The position numbers and the translations under genes are program-made. DNA of 37,418 nucleotides from a virus (taxonomy: Duplodnaviria > Heunggongvirae > Uroviricota > Caudoviricetes), in the IMG/VR virus record IMGVR_UViG_2695420585_000012; one strand, 5' to 3'. The stretch's first letter is position 1, and each line of letters opens with the position of its first letter. Shown here piece by piece: positions 26,295 through 37,418 of this stretch. The notes beneath the pieces are model-generated. The model was not told the origin of the DNA. It did no database searches and saw nothing but the letters and a program-made list of their open reading frames with translations.

Positions 26295-27464
26295 TTACCA
26301 ATCCATGTTTGCGGCATTATCCATCTCACGAGTTAAGTAATTAACAAATAAGTCCATATTCCTTTCTGATTTCATCGCCTCCGCATAGGTTCCATTAGTT
26401 ACGTAAGATAGTATTAAAGGACATCCAGATTCAATATAAATTTTTGCTGGGGACAGTTCTCCCTGCCACAAATTTTCAAGAAAATCGTTAATTAATTGCA
26501 TTGCTTCAGGTGCCAAAAAATGCACACCATTTCCAAACTTGAAACGTTCTTTATTTTCTCGATGAGGCAGCAATAGTGGCACAGCCCCTACACTTGAGTG
26601 AAATTCCAATGCTTGCCCATCCTTACCGAAGGCGCCATGGGCTACAAAATTACGCACCTGTTTTCTGAGTATAAGTAAACGATCATAGAACAATTTTAGA
26701 CTGGAAGAGTTAATATCAATGGCTAATTTGAATTTCTCCCCCCATTCTTTTCCAACTTTATCAGCCACATCATTCCCATTTTTTATCTCACCCTTCAAGA
26801 TTGCAATAAGAATGAAAACATGCTCGGTCCAATTGAAAAATGACTCAATTGCAGACGTTGCTAACCACATAGCCTCTCTTCGGAGTTCAATTATCTTATT
26901 TGATTGTTCAAAAGTGGATTGTAACAGGCTGAAAAAATTATCAGACTTAAACTCACTATCAACTTCCAGTTTAGACTCTTGGCCAGCAGCAACTTCATCA
27001 AGCTTCTGTTTATATAGCTCTAAAAAATAGCAAAACCTATCATAAAGAGAATTAGCATTGTTATTAACATTTAGATTTGAAGTCTTTGCTGCATTGTCTG
27101 CAAGCGAGTCAAAAAAATTCGTAGCAGCTTTAACCCCTGCGCAAATATGTCTCAAAACAGTTTTAGCTTGCTCTATATCATCATCACTCTTGATAAATAT
27201 ATCTAAACCAAGTTTACGATGTTCTATAATTACGACAGTCCCATCAATCCGGACTGGGATAGAAAAAGAAATCTTCTCATCAACCCCACGATTTTTAAAT
27301 TTCAGTAAATCTACCAAAAGAAAATAAACGAGATAATACGGAGGTAATGAGTCTCCCAAACCCGAGCGCTTACCCCAAAAATATTCATCAAGCTCGGCAG
27401 ACTCCATTGTCCCTATGACTCTTCGGACGCGTTCTTCAACTTTAGCCAGATCCATTCCCCACAC
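26295..27464 (-). CDS. Hypothetical cargo protein with HEPN-like RNxxxH motif (possible Abi-type RNase)
   Basis: 389-aa AT-rich ORF between the SOS-regulated small gene and cos; motif ILRKQVRNFVAHG. Confidence 0.55.
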   Translation of the reverse strand: MWGMDLAKVEERVRRVIGTMESAELDEYFWGKRSGLGDSLPPYYLVYFLLVDLLKFKNRGVDEKISFSIPVRIDGTVVIIEHRKLGLDIFIKSDDDIEQAKTVLRHICAGVKAATNFFDSLADNAAKTSNLNVNNNANSLYDRFCYFLELYKQKLDEVAAGQESKLEVDSEFKSDNFFSLLQSTFEQSNKIIELRREAMWLATSAIESFFNWTEHVFILIAILKGEIKNGNDVADKVGKEWGEKFKLAIDINSSSLKLFYDRLLILRKQVRNFVAHGAFGKDGQALEFHSSVGAVPLLLPHRENKERFKFGNGVHFLAPEAMQLINDFLENLWQGELSPAKIYIESGCPLILSYVTNGTYAEAMKSERNMDLFVNYLTREMDNAANMDW

Positions 27465-27625: not shown

Positions 27626-27814
27626 CTAACCGAGAAGATCCATTACACGGTTATATTCATGGGCACGAATTTTCGCCATCAACTCATCAGTCAGCTCTGA
27701 AACCCACTGCAGAGCCAGCCCCTTCTCTTCATCACTACACTCACTAGCCGCTACAAGCTTAAGAAAAAAATCAATGCGCTGGAGCTTCAAAGACTCCAAA
27801 AAATAGTCCTGCAT
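27626..27814 (-). CDS. Small SOS-regulated protein, possible Tum-like antirepressor
   Basis: 62-aa ORF from the internal ATG with GGAGG Shine-Dalgarno; LexA box in the promoter; the 96-aa track ORF would begin upstream of the operator. Confidence 0.5.
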   Translation of the reverse strand: MQDYFLESLKLQRIDFFLKLVAASECSDEEKGLALQWVSELTDELMAKIRAHEYNRVMDLLG

Positions 27815-27856: not shown

Positions 27857-27872
27857 ACTGTTTATATTTACA
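27857..27872 (-). promoter_or_regulatory. LexA box (SOS operator) overlapping a putative promoter
   Basis: CTGT-TTATATTT-ACAG matches CTGT-N8-ACAG with AT-rich spacer; minus strand has TTTACA, 17 nt, TACTGT around it. Confidence 0.6.
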
Positions 27873-27967
27873 GTATATAATAATCTTACTGATGTAAAAC
27901 GTTTTTTTACGTTCATCAGCCTGATATGCCTGGTATTATTAAGAGCACGAATTGTTAATCCGCGTAA

Positions 27968-32273: not shown

Positions 32274-32792
32274 TCACAGCAAACCGAATGAGGCGCCGAG
32301 GCCAGTCACGGTATCAACTGCACTCGCCATCGCAGGGTTAGCCTGTAAACGGGCCTGCAATGAAACAGCAGCCAGCGCCATCAGTCGTGTTACAGAGTTA
32401 ATGCTGCTGATAGCATCACGACGACCTGCACTGGTTTTTACATCGCCAGATACCGCACCTGCAGCAACACGCCCGATCTCTGCGGTTGCACTCATGACGT
32501 AATGCGGCAGTTTCTCTTTTGCTACCTCATTAATCGGTACACATGGCAGGCAGTGAATCTGTGCCAGAAAACCATCTATCAGCGTTGAATCTTCAGTCAG
32601 ATCGGTAAGCAGCCAGATTTCTGGTGCGGTTAATAAATGAGGTTGAGCTGGGTTCAGCTTGTTCCGCAGAATCTGCACATTCATGCCTGCACGTTCTGCC
32701 AGTTGCACCAGGTTGTGGCGCAATGCGAATGCACGACAGGCTTCATCAAAATGTGGATGTTTGGAAACTTGGTAATCAAACATAGTCGACAT
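32274..32792 (-). CDS. Phage regulatory protein CII-like (186 CII family)
   Basis: 172-aa ORF downstream of the Apl/Cox-like gene; resembles recalled 186 CII-type proteins. Confidence 0.6.
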
Positions 32793-32815: not shown

Positions 32816-33037
32816 CTAGTTGAATACAACATTGCAATCAGTCAGTGCATCAACGGTAAGAGCAGCAAGGTTGATCATTACCTTTTCTCTTTTCTTGTCT
32901 TTACGGAGACGATGCCGAGGGATGCGACCATCAGCCAGCATATCGTTGATTGTGTCGATCGAAAGACCAGTAAGTTCGCTATAACGCTCAATTGTGACGT
33001 GTGGCGTATTCAGAGTTATTGAAATGTTAGGGGTCAT
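32816..33037 (-). CDS. Apl/Cox-like HTH excisionase / switch regulator
   Basis: 73 aa from ATG with AGGAG upstream; divergent from the repressor; first early gene. Confidence 0.55.
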
Positions 33038-33125
33038 GATGCAACATCTCCTATTGTCTTGTGATAAGCAGGTTTTAATCGTGACTTCAACTTCACAAAT
33101 CGGAGAATAGGATCGCAAAACGGAT
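33038..33125. promoter_or_regulatory. Lysis-lysogeny switch region (divergent early and repressor promoters/operators)
   Basis: 88-bp gap between divergently transcribed Apl-like and CI-like genes; individual operators not resolved. Confidence 0.4.
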
Positions 33126-34082
33126 ATGTCAACACACAAAATCACATTTCGCCATGTTGATGATGCAATGAAAACTGTAATCATGCAGAATCGTGGAGGA
33201 CAACAGGTCATTGACCGAATTTTGAAAGCTTATGGCTTCACTTCACGTCAAGCATTCTGTAACCACTTAGGGATATCCCAAAGCACAATGGCGAACAGAT
33301 ATGCTCGTGATACCTTCCCTGCCGACTGGGTCATAATCTGCAGCATGGAAACTGGCGTGTCGGTTGAATGGTTGGCATTTGGTACCGATAACACAGTAGA
33401 GGCTGTCACACATAATACAGAACAGAACCACCATAAAGATGGTAAGGAGATTCATTCTCTCACTTTAGACACAAAATCCCCAAATGAGAACAATACTCAC
33501 CGAAAGAACGAGAGCCTCATTGAGGTTAATCAAGGAGGAAAAGCGGCAATCGAGCGAATAGTTATCGCCTATGGATTTAAGACAAGGCAAGCTCTAGCGG
33601 ATCACATTGGTGTTTCAAAAAGCACATTAGCCAATCGTTACATGAGAGATACCTTTCCAGCTGATTGGATCATCCAGTGCGCACTTGAAACCGGAGCTTC
33701 ATTAATGTGGCTAACAACCGGTAATGGTCCTGTCTTTGAAGACGCTAAGAGCGATATTATTGCTATCACACGGAAAAAAGTTATAAATGGTATGTTGTTT
33801 GATACAAATTATCTCCCTTTTGATAAAACCATGTTACCCAGCAAGGTGAAAAAACCCATATCTATAGTAGATGAAGGAAATGTATATCTTGCAGACAAAG
33901 CATTTGATGAAGTAACCGATGGAAAATGGTTAGTTGAAATCGAAGGAAAATTTAGTGTTAGAGATCTAACCAGAATTCCAATTGCAAAAGTAAAAGTATC
34001 TAATGAAAGTACAACTTTTGAATGTCTATTAGCGGATATTAATGTAATAGCAAAATGTTTTGGTATATATAAGGATATTTAA
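33126..34082 (+). CDS. CI-like immunity repressor with duplicated N-terminal domain
   Basis: 318-aa ORF; two ~62-aa repeats each with an AYGF...ANRY.RDTFPADW...ETG...WL.G pattern, ~58% identical to each other, then a C-terminal domain; resemblance to 186 CI is from memory. Confidence 0.7.
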   Translation: MSTHKITFRHVDDAMKTVIMQNRGGQQVIDRILKAYGFTSRQAFCNHLGISQSTMANRYARDTFPADWVIICSMETGVSVEWLAFGTDNTVEAVTHNTEQNHHKDGKEIHSLTLDTKSPNENNTHRKNESLIEVNQGGKAAIERIVIAYGFKTRQALADHIGVSKSTLANRYMRDTFPADWIIQCALETGASLMWLTTGNGPVFEDAKSDIIAITRKKVINGMLFDTNYLPFDKTMLPSKVKKPISIVDEGNVYLADKAFDEVTDGKWLVEIEGKFSVRDLTRIPIAKVKVSNESTTFECLLADINVIAKCFGIYKDI

Positions 34083-34865
34083 ATGACAGACCTTCCTAAC
34101 AATGAAGAGATGCTTCTTTATGCCAAAAGGAACCTTGAGTTTTTCATTAAAACATTCTACTTACACTTTTATTCTGACATTGAGTTATTGCAAGCCCCAG
34201 CTCAACCTGAAACAGAAGAACAACGACTGAAACGCTTAATATCCGAAAAAGAGAGTTTCTTTCAATCTGGCTTGGTAATACTTTTTAATTCTGCTGAAAT
34301 ATATCTAAAGTCTATAATTGCTGAGCATAGTGTTTATTTACTTTTAAAAGAAGTAAAAGACTGCTATAAAAACAAATCTTTTTTCGAATGTTCAACATTA
34401 GACGCAACCGAACTACATAGAATAGCACAAAGTATCAGTGGGCGAAATCTTTCACCGCGCTTTAATGAAATTTATGATATTTTGCGCAAAGAAAGAAATA
34501 AAGTAATTCACTTAGGTAAAAGTAATAATAAAGAAATACGTAAAGACTTTTTAAGTGCATTTCTAATTTTTCGAGAGGAGATATATCAAGAGCCTCTTAA
34601 TAACCTGGTTCATTGCTTGATAAATGATAAAAACATGCCTGAACAAAAATTAGTCGAGGCAAAGAAAAACTATGCAGCAAGCATTATAGACATGATGAAA
34701 ATATTTTTTCCTTTAGATGATATTTTAGCCAACATATATAAGATTGATGGAAAACCGAAAAATTGGAATGTTTGTACTAATTGTCAAACTCCGGGGAAAA
34801 CACTCGCCGTCATATCTAAAACTAAATCAATTTGCTTATCATGTGATTTTAAAATAGGATTGTAA
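34083..34865 (+). CDS. Hypothetical cargo protein with HEPN-like RNxxxH motif and C-terminal CxxC...CxxC ribbon
   Basis: 260-aa AT-rich ORF starting immediately after the repressor stop; motif ILRKERNKVIHLG; C-terminal CTNCQ...CLSCD. Confidence 0.55.
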   Translation: MTDLPNNEEMLLYAKRNLEFFIKTFYLHFYSDIELLQAPAQPETEEQRLKRLISEKESFFQSGLVILFNSAEIYLKSIIAEHSVYLLLKEVKDCYKNKSFFECSTLDATELHRIAQSISGRNLSPRFNEIYDILRKERNKVIHLGKSNNKEIRKDFLSAFLIFREEIYQEPLNNLVHCLINDKNMPEQKLVEAKKNYAASIIDMMKIFFPLDDILANIYKIDGKPKNWNVCTNCQTPGKTLAVISKTKSICLSCDFKIGL

Positions 34866-34867
34866 AC

Positions 34868-35938
34868 ATGGAAAACTTAAAATACATACCTTTTAATCAA
34901 GTAGATTTTTCTGATGTTTTTTTTGACTCTTTAAAATCCGATTATGCTCATGGGTTTATTGATTGGTTCCATTCTAAATGTAAATCAAATGATTATGCAT
35001 ATGTCCTTTATGATGAACAAAATAAAATTGATGGTTTTTTGTATCTAAAAACAGAAGTAGGTATCATTGAAGATACAAAACCAAATATTCCTGATGGTAT
35101 TCATCTAAAAGTTGGAACATTTAAATTTAATCCAAAAGGAACTCTTCGTGGTCAACGATTTTTAAAAAAAATATTCGATCACGCTCTAGATAATAATGCT
35201 AACAATATATATGTGACTGTTTTTGAAAAACATGACTACTTAATTAGACTATTCAAAATCTATGGCTTTATAGATATTGGAGTAAAAGAATCTGAAAATG
35301 GTGTAGAGCGAGTACTAATAAAAGAAATGAATAGTAATGCTCTTACGGGCGATATACTGTCAGATTATCCATTTATTAATAACAGAGGCAGTGAAAATAA
35401 ATTCTTGCTTTCAATATACCCCGTATTTCATACTCGTTTATTCCCTGACTCAAAATTAATTACAGAGTCACCAGACGTTGTTGCTGATGTATCATATGCA
35501 AATAGCATTAGAAAAGTATATATTTGTGGCATGTCAGATGTTGAATTAATGAAGCCAAACGATATAATCGTTATATACCGAACATCCGATAATCAAGGGC
35601 CTGCATATTACCGTTCTGTTGCTACTTCTTTATGTGTAGTAGAAAAAGTTAGAAATATAAACTCTTTCGTTACAGAGAAAGAATTTCTAAATTACTGTTC
35701 TAGATATTCTGTTTTTACAGAATCTGAGCTTAAAAGTTTTTATAGAACAAAAAAATACCCATATATTATAAGCTTTACATATAACCTTGCTTTGCCCAAA
35801 AGACTAAATCGTGCTAAACTTATTTCTGAAGTAGGATTATCCCCGCGAGCTTACTGGGGGATCATGAAGTTAACAAACGAACAGTTTAATAGCATTATTA
35901 AACTTGGTGGCGTCAATGAAAGTATTATTGTCAATTAA
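34868..35938 (+). CDS. Hypothetical cargo protein, possible GNAT-like N-terminal domain
   Basis: 356-aa AT-rich ORF 2 nt after the preceding stop; segment GTFKFNPKGTLRGQRFLKKIFDHAL...YGFIDIG loosely resembles a GNAT acetyl-CoA-binding region; C-terminal half unassigned. Confidence 0.45.
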   Translation: MENLKYIPFNQVDFSDVFFDSLKSDYAHGFIDWFHSKCKSNDYAYVLYDEQNKIDGFLYLKTEVGIIEDTKPNIPDGIHLKVGTFKFNPKGTLRGQRFLKKIFDHALDNNANNIYVTVFEKHDYLIRLFKIYGFIDIGVKESENGVERVLIKEMNSNALTGDILSDYPFINNRGSENKFLLSIYPVFHTRLFPDSKLITESPDVVADVSYANSIRKVYICGMSDVELMKPNDIIVIYRTSDNQGPAYYRSVATSLCVVEKVRNINSFVTEKEFLNYCSRYSVFTESELKSFYRTKKYPYIISFTYNLALPKRLNRAKLISEVGLSPRAYWGIMKLTNEQFNSIIKLGGVNESIIVN

Positions 35939-36287
35939 CCCAGAGCATGTAGAAAAAATCCTTAATGGAACAAAGAAATTTGAATTCCGAAAAGGAATTT
36001 TCAAAAAACCGGATGTAAAATCTGTGGTTATTTATTCAACAATGCCTGTCGGTAAAGTTGTTGCTGAATTTGACATTGCAGATGTTATAGAAGACAAGCC
36101 AAGTATTGTATGGGAAAAAACAAGCCAATACGCAGGTATCAGCAAACAATTTTTTGACTCATATTTTCATAGCAAAGAAAAAGCCTTTGCTATAGAAATT
36201 GGCAATCTAAAAATCTATGATCAACCGCTTCATCTAAGTTCATTAGGTGATAACATAACGGCCCCGCAATCATATCGGTACTTATGA
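35916..36287 (+). CDS. ASCH-domain (PUA-like) protein, cargo
   Basis: About 123 aa from MKVLLSINPEHVEKILNGTKKFEFRK, matching the ASCH hallmark GxKxxExR as in E. coli YqfB; overlaps the end of the preceding gene. Confidence 0.6.
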   Translation: MKVLLSINPEHVEKILNGTKKFEFRKGIFKKPDVKSVVIYSTMPVGKVVAEFDIADVIEDKPSIVWEKTSQYAGISKQFFDSYFHSKEKAFAIEIGNLKIYDQPLHLSSLGDNITAPQSYRYL

Positions 36288-36365: not shown

Positions 36366-37418
36366 ATGGCAGTACGAAAACTCACCACAGGAAAATGGCT
36401 TTGCGAATGTTACCCCGCCGGACGCAGTGGGCGTCGTGTGCGTAAACAATTCGCCACCAAAGGCGAAGCACTGGCTTTTGAGCGCCACACGATGGAAGAA
36501 ACCGAAGCAAAGCCCTGGCTGGGTGAATCAGTGGATCGTCGAACACTGAAAGACGTGGTTGAGCTATGGTTCAAACTACATGGTAAATCTCTGACAGCTG
36601 GGCAGCATGTCTATGACAAATTGCTGTTGATGGTTGACGCTCTGGGCAATCCTCTTGCAACCGATCTCACCTCTAAAATGTTTGCCCACTATCGAGATAA
36701 ACGCCTGACAGGCGAGATCTACTTCAGCGAGAAATGGAAGAAAGGAGCAAGCCCGGTCACCATTAACCTGGAGCAAAGCTATCTAAGTAGTGTTTTTAGC
36801 GAACTATCCCGTCTGGGCGAATGGTCGTATCCGAACCCACTGGAGAACATGCGAAAATTCACCATCGCAGAAAAAGAGATGGCATGGCTTACCCATGAGC
36901 AGATTGTTGAATTGCTGGCTGATTGCAAACGTCAGGACCCAATTCTGGCACTGGTAGTTAAGATATGCTTAAGCACAGGCGCACGCTGGCGTGAAGCCGT
37001 AAATCTTACCCGCTCACAGGTGACCAAATACCGAATTACCTTTGTCAGAACGAAGGGGAAGAAAAACAGAAGCATCCCTATCAGTAAAGAGCTTTACGAA
37101 GAGATCATGGCGCTTGATGGGTTCAATTTCTTCACAGACTGCTATTTTCAATTTTTATCCGTGATGGAAAAAACGTCTATCGTGCTCCCTCGCGGTCAAC
37201 TCACACACGTTCTGCGCCATACGTTTGCGGCGCACTTCATGATGTCGGGTGGAAACATTCTGGCCTTACAAAAAATTCTCGGACACCACGATATAAAAAT
37301 GACTATGCGTTACGCACATCTGGCACCGGATCATCTAGAAACGGCGCTCCGTTTCAATCCTCTGGCAACGCTGCCAAGTGGCGACAAAGTGGCGGCAGCG
37401 GTTGGCATTACCCCGTAA
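36366..37418 (+). CDS. int: Tyrosine integrase (P2 Int family)
   Basis: 350-aa ORF with conserved C-terminal R...HxxR...Y catalytic region (LSTGARWREA, HVLRHTFAAHF, RYAHL); stop codon is the last 3 nt of the window. Confidence 0.9.
   Translation: MAVRKLTTGKWLCECYPAGRSGRRVRKQFATKGEALAFERHTMEETEAKPWLGESVDRRTLKDVVELWFKLHGKSLTAGQHVYDKLLLMVDALGNPLATDLTSKMFAHYRDKRLTGEIYFSEKWKKGASPVTINLEQSYLSSVFSELSRLGEWSYPNPLENMRKFTIAEKEMAWLTHEQIVELLADCKRQDPILALVVKICLSTGARWREAVNLTRSQVTKYRITFVRTKGKKNRSIPISKELYEEIMALDGFNFFTDCYFQFLSVMEKTSIVLPRGQLTHVLRHTFAAHFMMSGGNILALQKILGHHDIKMTMRYAHLAPDHLETALRFNPLATLPSGDKVAAAVGITP

Follow-up and report, generated by a model that had tools for sequence, protein, structure and literature searches.

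Tandem DNA-Binding Heads in a Class of 186-Type Prophage Immunity Repressors

Introduction

The genetic switch of phage 186 is the textbook alternative to that of lambda, and a sizeable share of the natural relatives of 186, PSP3 among them, have an immunity repressor with two N-terminal DNA-binding domains (heads) per polypeptide. To our knowledge, all mechanistic work on the 186 switch assumes one head per subunit. In 186, three operators are placed at regular two-turn spacing over the lytic promoter pR (PMC3675496). Distal sites, FL and FR, lie about 300 bp away from them, and SOS induction of 186 goes through a LexA-controlled antirepressor, Tum, and not through self-cleavage of CI. Of the PsP3 CI protein, Nilsson et al. 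(2011) said only that its C-terminal domain is longer than that of 186 (PMC3448106), and our literature search found no paper describing tandem heads in CI. For mycobacteriophage repressors, heterotypic immunity, or two domains acting on an asymmetric site, has been described (PMC12700041, PMC9283540).

Here we analyze a two-headed CI encoded in a 37,418-nucleotide stretch of Caudoviricetes DNA (IMG/VR record IMGVR_UViG_2695420585_000012), which we refer to as the window and whose relevant features are collected in Table 1. The locus has the layout of 186: a lysogenic operon running from cI to int faces apl and cII across candidate convergent promoters, with int beginning at 36366, downstream of cI and three cargo genes.

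Table 1. Features of the window discussed in the text, in order of position.
Feature	Position	Strand	Basis or remark
62-aa ORF, candidate SOS-controlled antirepressor	27626..27814	-	phrog_698 (function unknown); assigned by position only
Perfect LexA-box consensus, CTGTTTATATTTACAG	27858..27873		44-59 nt upstream of the 62-aa ORF
cII-like gene	32274..32792	-	PF06892, E = 4e-42
apl/cox-like excisionase-repressor gene, 73 aa	32816..33037	-	phrog_575, E = 1e-31; RefSeq CDS
Candidate lysogenic promoter pL (TTGAAA, 17 bp, CAACAT)	33019..33047	+	Read from sequence; faces pR
Inverted repeat GTGA-N8-TCAC, weak	33081..33096		Centered 37.5 bp before cI ATG
Candidate operator a, TCACAAATCGG	33093..33103	+	Over pR start site; kept in tandem type I loci
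Candidate lytic promoter pR	33104..33132	-	-35 TTGACA 33132..33127, 17 bp, -10 TATTCT 33109..33104
Candidate operator b, TCGCAAAACGG	33113..33123	+	In pR spacer
cI gene, immunity repressor, 318 aa	33126..34082	+	ORF; two PF07022 and one PF16452
N-terminal arm, residues 1-22 (MSTHKITFRH...)	33126..33191	+	Kept in type I tandem and D1-only proteins
Candidate operator c, TCACATTTCGCCAT	33142..33155	+	Upstream of pR -35, inside cI codons 6-10
D1, first helix-turn-helix domain, residues 23-87	33192..33386	+	Five helices, pLDDT about 90
Disordered linker (residues 88-128) and pre-D2 arm (129-136)	33387..33533	+	pLDDT, identity, alignment
Relic of the D2-class palindrome, TCCCCAAATGAGAA	33477..33490	+	Inside the linker coding region
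D2, second helix-turn-helix domain, residues 137-201	33534..33728	+	pLDDT about 90
186-type C-terminal (oligomerization) domain, residues 214-318	33765..34079	+	PF16452; Foldseek
Three-gene AT-rich cargo cassette between cI and int	34083..36287	+	260 aa; 356 aa PDC-M11A; 127 aa ASCH/PDC-M11B

Results

Domain Architecture and Predicted Structure of the Repressor

A BLASTP comparison of one half of CI against the other aligns residues 16-92 to residues 128-204 with 53% identity over 77 residues (E = 4e-32), and over a 66-column core the two heads, D1 and D2, are 59% identical, close to the figure of about 58% given in a preliminary description of the gene. Two stretches of the protein match Pfam family PF07022 (Phage_CI_repr; whole-protein E = 1e-57) and residues 214-312 match PF16452 (Phage_CI_C; E = 7e-31), all within a single polypeptide; the S24 peptidase family is not among its Pfam matches. 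The arrangement is therefore that of the preliminary description, with two consecutive N-terminal domains followed by one C-terminal domain. The solved structure of 186 CI (2fjr) matches residues 141-318 only, so that the first ~130 residues are extra relative to 186; the preliminary description was right in taking the protein for a 186-type CI and in giving 186 CI a single N-terminal domain.

An AlphaFold2 monomer model built on 41 tandem homologues contains two five-helix domains, with helices spanning residues 25-85 and 138-198, and a beta-rich C-terminal domain that Foldseek superimposes on 186 CI (2fkd_A) with a TM score of 0.92 and an rmsd of 1.3 Å. In the N-terminal arm a helix is predicted at residues 13-20 (pLDDT about 69), and residues 90-132 are disordered (pLDDT below 50). 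The pTM of the model is only 0.44, with no confidence in the relative placement of the domains, D1 and D2 included; for a single-chain dimer, a conceivable arrangement, the model gives no indication either way. Both heads keep the recognition-helix motif S-x-S-T-[LM]-A-N-R-Y-x-R, neither is decaying, and the recognition helix of D1 is invariant among type I proteins, the tandem proteins with the same kind of D1 as the window. Purifying selection on both heads is strong, and each is an intact, well-folded helix-turn-helix domain; the layout of the class is an arm with D1, a disordered linker of roughly 45 residues, an arm with D2, a hinge, and the 186-type oligomerization domain.

The preliminary description called the gene AT-rich and translationally fused to the cargo cassette. 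The former is true of the C-terminal domain (31% GC) and not of the two N-terminal domains (43-45% GC). As to the latter, the cI stop codon TAA (34080-34082) abuts the next ATG (34083), a junction that is compatible with translational coupling and is not a protein fusion.

RefSeq/PGAP begins cI at M20 (33183, 299 aa). We favor the start at 33126 because this ATG is kept in all seven tandem loci aligned and codon 20 is ATA in L082 and CTG in L002, neither of which is a start codon there. The ATG at 33126 overlaps the -35 element of the candidate pR, and D1 stays inside the CI protein with either start. Start annotation is inconsistent across the tandem-head class, in which other homologues have been called from the upstream ATG.

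Distribution of Tandem Heads

Among the best 120 homologue clusters (90% identity), 47 have the tandem layout (291-330 aa) and 73 a single head. Several of the tandem clusters hold 100-400 member sequences, and their sources are Escherichia, Klebsiella, Citrobacter, Enterobacter, Salmonella, Kosakonia, and Edwardsiella; tandem CI proteins are also encoded in deposited phage genomes, for example those of Klebsiella phages ST11-OXA245phi3.1 and 4LV2017 and of Salmonella and Escherichia phages. When D1 alone was searched against 1.84 billion representatives clustered at 50% identity, 187 family members were found at E <= 0.001, and two or more heads are present in 22 of the 139 listed proteins that match the CI head profile. 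One group of these multi-head representatives contains the CI of reference phage PSP3. A 218-base D1 probe matches 236 of 5426 complete E. coli genomes (~4%, a match being counted when at least 80% of the probe was covered), the sampled matches being annotated as CI genes of 292-312 aa, and the window cI itself is present, at 99% identity or more and with a continuous frame, in 28 complete E. coli genomes.

The tandem-head architecture is thus established in the databases and functionally unstudied, and the window gene is an ordinary member of the class. The rarity implied by the preliminary description does not survive the counts among the best clusters and among the listed representatives at 50% identity, or the sharing of the layout by PSP3. 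Tandem heads are the norm for a large subfamily and are not uniform across the family, which goes part of the way toward the family-wide norm that the preliminary description named as evidence against it.

Some relatives depart from both layouts. The metagenomic proteins P0124, P0170, P0184, P0229, and P0232 (380-1480 aa) have four to six stretches matching the CI head, and three heads of P0170 are confirmed by a stricter head profile. P0049 of locus L003 (Dryocola sp. BD586) is a protein of 229 aa with both heads and without the C-terminal domain, apparently a truncated tandem repressor.

Descent of the Two Heads and Mosaic Structure of cI

The nearest relatives of the two heads are found in different single-headed repressors. 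D1 is 82-83% identical to the sole head of repressors of 207-208 aa, P0083 (83%) and P0104, and repressors of this type share with the tandem CI the arm MST..IT.RH...MQNRGG. The sole head of P0056 has 91% identity to D2 and an identical recognition helix (VSKSTLANRYMRD), and D2 with its preceding arm (residues 129-136) aligns with the N-terminus of a class of single-headed, single-domain CIs that we call S-long (MSTSKYPNEIKINPNQGG...). D1 and D2 thus come from different head lineages, and for either lineage there are single-domain repressors that have it as their only head. On these comparisons the tandem CI is not a recent duplication within the gene and is better read as two divergent paralogous heads joined together. 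The simple duplication put forward in the preliminary description accords poorly with heads that are closer to P0083 and P0056, respectively, than to each other (59%).

In further tandem proteins D1 is of a different kind (beginning MDL.. or MNF..), with yet other single heads as its nearest relatives. The heads of a Shewanella tandem protein are 68% identical mutually and 37% or less identical to all else compared, and those of PSP3 CI are 52% identical mutually and 28-45% identical to the window heads. Based on these D1 kinds and head identities, we suggest that head stacking probably arose several times, or that heads were swapped repeatedly.

From 33546, at the start of D2, into int, the window has 78% DNA identity to a prophage of Enterobacter roggenkampii (L089), a match that spans D2, the C-terminal domain, the three cargo genes, and the start of int; the CI of L089 is single-headed, and D1 and the linker are absent from it. 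The leftward part of the locus, up to 33389 at the end of D1, is 90% identical to an E. coli tandem locus (L085). Judging from these alignments, cI is a recombinational mosaic in which D1 travels with the early/switch region, and a second unit extends from D2 through the C-terminal domain and the cargo genes to the start of int. GC content also changes within cI, from 43-45% in the heads to 31% in the C-terminal domain, which resembles the cargo in this respect.

Compared pairwise, tandem proteins have a mean identity of 0.82 in D1 (type I) and 0.78 in D2, against 0.34 in the C-terminal domain and 0.15 in the linker. Heads that are about 80% identical beside an oligomerization domain that is 34% identical are the opposite of what is expected if immunity specificity resides in the heads. 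By changing fast, the C-terminal domain might keep repressors from forming mixed oligomers or from being cross-induced.

Switch Region and Candidate Operators

The candidate pR is a sigma-70-like promoter with 10 of 12 consensus matches in a promoter scan; it points towards apl, is kept in seven tandem loci, and has the position relative to cI and apl of the annotated 186 pR. The facing pL, inferred from the sequence and not scored by the promoter scan, lies in a block that is kept across loci, in an arrangement that mirrors the annotated 186 pL. Three similar 11-mers in one orientation, TCACAAATCGG at 33093, TCGCAAAACGG at 33113, and TCACATTTCGC at 33142, are distributed across pR, and we treat them as candidate operators a, b, and c, their motifs having been defined after looking at the sequences. 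They are spaced 20 and 29 bp apart, and each is asymmetric, one half being TCACA and the other CGS. Codons are identical in all seven loci at 14 of 99 invariant-residue columns, and four of the 14 are the consecutive cI codons 7-10 (ACATTTCGCCAT, 33144-33155), whose identity extends to synonymous sites and so points to constraint at the DNA level on this segment.

The search for operator arrays near cI that the preliminary description had proposed yielded the three related candidate sites over pR, whose spacings of 20 and 29 bp differ from the regular two turns of 186; nothing convincing was found in the window that would be an FL/FR-like distal copy of any candidate operator. There are no perfect 6-bp inverted repeats in the window within -420 to +480 bp of the cI start. 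The weak inverted repeat GTGA-N8-TCAC has the same center as a palindrome in the single-domain loci L089 and L092. A repeat search of the PSP3 switch region gave nothing interpretable.

The S-long loci, in which the sole head is of the D2 class, have an element of another kind. In all seven, from different sources, the palindrome T[AC]CCCAAWTGGGAA stands 44 bp upstream of the cI ATG, and in five of the seven a copy also lies 15 bp downstream of it; one candidate S-long operator reads GTACCCAATTGGGAAC. Counts of this and two further elements by locus class are given in Table 2, where TCAC-N5-GTGA is the form of the annotated 186 FL and FR sites. The D2-class palindrome is absent near the cI start of all 13 tandem loci. 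The TCACAWWWCGS motif is found in every tandem type I locus but the cargo copy in L096 (described below), which does not adjoin pR, and the D1-only locus L091 has sites of the same kind, ATCACAAAACGCCA and ATCACATTACGCCA; ATCACAAAACGCCA is the equivalent of b, and c too has its equivalent there. Promoter-region elements, as compared across these loci, follow the class of the first head, a pattern to be read knowing that D1 physically adjoins pR and that linkage alone would make D1 and promoter sequences co-vary.

Table 2. Loci with each element by class of repressor, counted from -130 to +60 bp of the cI start (CCCAAWTGGG with <=1 mismatch).
Class	Loci	CCCAAWTGGG	TCAC-N5-GTGA	TCACAWWWCGS
S-long, single head	7	7	0	0
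S-short, single head	9	0	5	0
D1-only (L091)	1	0	0	1
Tandem type I (including L095)	11	0	0	10
Tandem type II (L087)	1	0	1	0
Tandem, MNF-type D1 (L088)	1	0	0	0

Across the whole 37-kb window the D2-class palindrome has two one-mismatch matches, fewer than chance expects. One of the two, a homology relic within the linker coding region, TCCCCAAATGAGAA, matches natural S-long operators as well as those match each other; its function is doubtful given that it is kept in only four of the nine tandem loci examined.

SOS Element and Cargo Genes

Directly after the replication gene, in the position of p95/tum in 186, the window has a LexA box and a 62-aa ORF, and a comparison of this ORF with 186 Tum found no sequence similarity. 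In the near-identical E. coli prophage L001 the 62-aa ORF is followed by a DinI-like gene; the window instead has there a 389-aa ORF (26295-27464, minus strand) without a PHROG match.

Two of the three cargo genes (34868-36287) match a candidate defense system of PADLOC, PDC-M11 (PDC-M11A, 2e-130; PDC-M11B, 5e-48), and the PDC-M11B protein carries an ASCH domain (Pfam). The first cargo gene, of 260 aa (34083-34865), has only weak matches (DUF3644). The GC content of the cargo is 27-33%. The PDC-M11 cassette also follows the single-headed cI of E. roggenkampii L089, and other related loci have different cargo between cI and int, for example an AAA/SMC-like ATPase or DUF4747.

In locus L096 (524-2067; E. 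coli 18KM2445, NZ_CP151004), a single-headed cI of 189 aa adjoins the switch, and a complete tandem cI of 307 aa is present as a second gene, in the cI-int hotspot and without a pR region of its own. This locus shows that extra repressor specificities are carried as cargo, and its arrangement is a plausible intermediate for head fusion.

Discussion

Proposed Mechanism and Alternative Readings

Taking these results together, we think it fairly probable that the window encodes the immunity repressor of a 186-like (P2-family) prophage, of the tandem class, in which D1 runs the resident switch and D2 has its target elsewhere. The C-terminal domain would build dimers and perhaps a 14-mer wheel of seven dimers by analogy with 186, an assumption based on the 30-33% identity that it has to its 186 counterpart. 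D1 would read the three candidate sites of the TCACA-WWW-CGS type that cover pR, and its binding there would shut off lytic transcription and free the facing pL from interference, as in 186 (PMC3675496). One head at least has to read the resident operators, and we take D1 to be the most likely reader given that the palindrome of D2-class heads, CCCAAWTGGG, is absent from the switch. That the recognition helix of D2 is kept while its usual palindrome is absent from the switch suggests that D2 probably acts elsewhere, either on incoming phages of the S-long class or as an extra DNA contact of low specificity. Induction would probably proceed through the LexA-controlled candidate antirepressor and not through self-cleavage.

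The reading closest to the preliminary description is that both heads act on the resident switch, through neighboring or composite half-sites, so that contacts per wheel are doubled and operator geometry and immunity specificity are changed. Both heads and their recognition-helix motif are conserved, on its long flexible linker D1 could contact sites at a distance of one to several turns, and the candidate sites, with their unlike halves, have the asymmetry expected for two unlike heads; however, L091 has the same asymmetric sites with a D1-type head only, and D2 shares its recognition helix and 85-91% identity with heads whose loci all have the palindrome that is missing from every tandem locus. 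We therefore do not favor a reshaping of the resident operators by both heads and consider it unlikely, though deserving of attention. In vivo, D1 could conversely be a regulatory or decoy module, for example a docking site for an SOS antirepressor, leaving D2 to read the operators. D2 does adjoin the C-terminal domain in the geometry native to single-headed repressors, and D1 sits on a disordered tether; yet the D2-class operator is absent at pR, the D1 recognition helix is invariant in type I, D1-type domains serve as the sole head of P0104-like repressors, and promoter sequences follow the class of D1, all of which make a decoy role improbable. A further alternative is an artefact, in which D1 would belong to a gene of its own upstream of cI and only an error in sequencing or in calling the frame would have linked the two; the difference between the RefSeq start (M20) and the start of the longest ORF might speak for it. 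We reject this explanation as having next to no likelihood: the frame is open in the 47 tandem clusters, from many genera, and in the 28 complete E. coli genomes, and D1 is part of the protein whichever start codon is used.

A more specific version of our preferred assignment of D1 to the resident switch is that CI is a bivalent repressor, in which D1 keeps the phage's own lysogeny and D2 represses incoming 186-like phages of the S-long group. This is a tentative proposal, and we regard it as rather doubtful. It fits the probable repeated evolution of the layout, the tandem cI carried as cargo in the defense hotspot of L096, and the presence in the same species of S-long-type prophages, about 173 of the 5426 complete E. 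coli genomes having one. If it is true, one protein confers two immunities and head-stacking is a recurrent defense strategy; immunity of this kind to a second phage group would make domain stacking a simple and overlooked means of phage-phage competition and would help in predicting immunity groups from sequence. A second head that did no more than add contacts would make the tandem CI a natural variant of the wheel model, worth one structural study.

Comparison with Known Systems

The mycobacteriophage repressors cited above (PMC12700041, PMC9283540) provide conceptual parallels only, belonging to unrelated protein families. The closest system with solved structures is 186 CI (PDB 2FJR, 2FKD), whose N-terminal and C-terminal domains are of the same families as those of the window CI. 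The 186 protein has one N-terminal domain and 192 aa, whereas the window CI adds an arm, a head, and a 45-residue linker at the N-terminus. The two switches also differ in that the cI start codon overlaps the -35 element of pR in the window and is 15 bp away from it in 186, and in their operator sequences, with no clear FL/FR sites found in the window.

The S-long CIs lack D1 and the linker, and their pR regions carry CCCAAWTGGG, unlike that of the window. Among them, P0035 of E. roggenkampii is 75% identical to D2 and the C-terminal domain of the window CI and is accompanied by the same PDC-M11 cassette, and P0056, from Citrobacter, has the same recognition helix as D2 of the window.

The same architecture is found in the CI of the Salmonella phage PSP3 (NP_958086, 286 aa), a phage of the same genus-level type (Eganvirus) as the window. 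This functionally uncharacterized protein has two PF07022 domains and one PF16452 domain and is collinear over its full length with the window CI at 30% identity, with a shorter linker. Given that D1 and D2 of PSP3 are more similar to each other (52%) than to the window domains (28-45%), the two tandem arrangements may have arisen separately, a suggestion based on these identities. Relatives of PSP3 CI with the same architecture are encoded by SEN1, SW9, and Midge.
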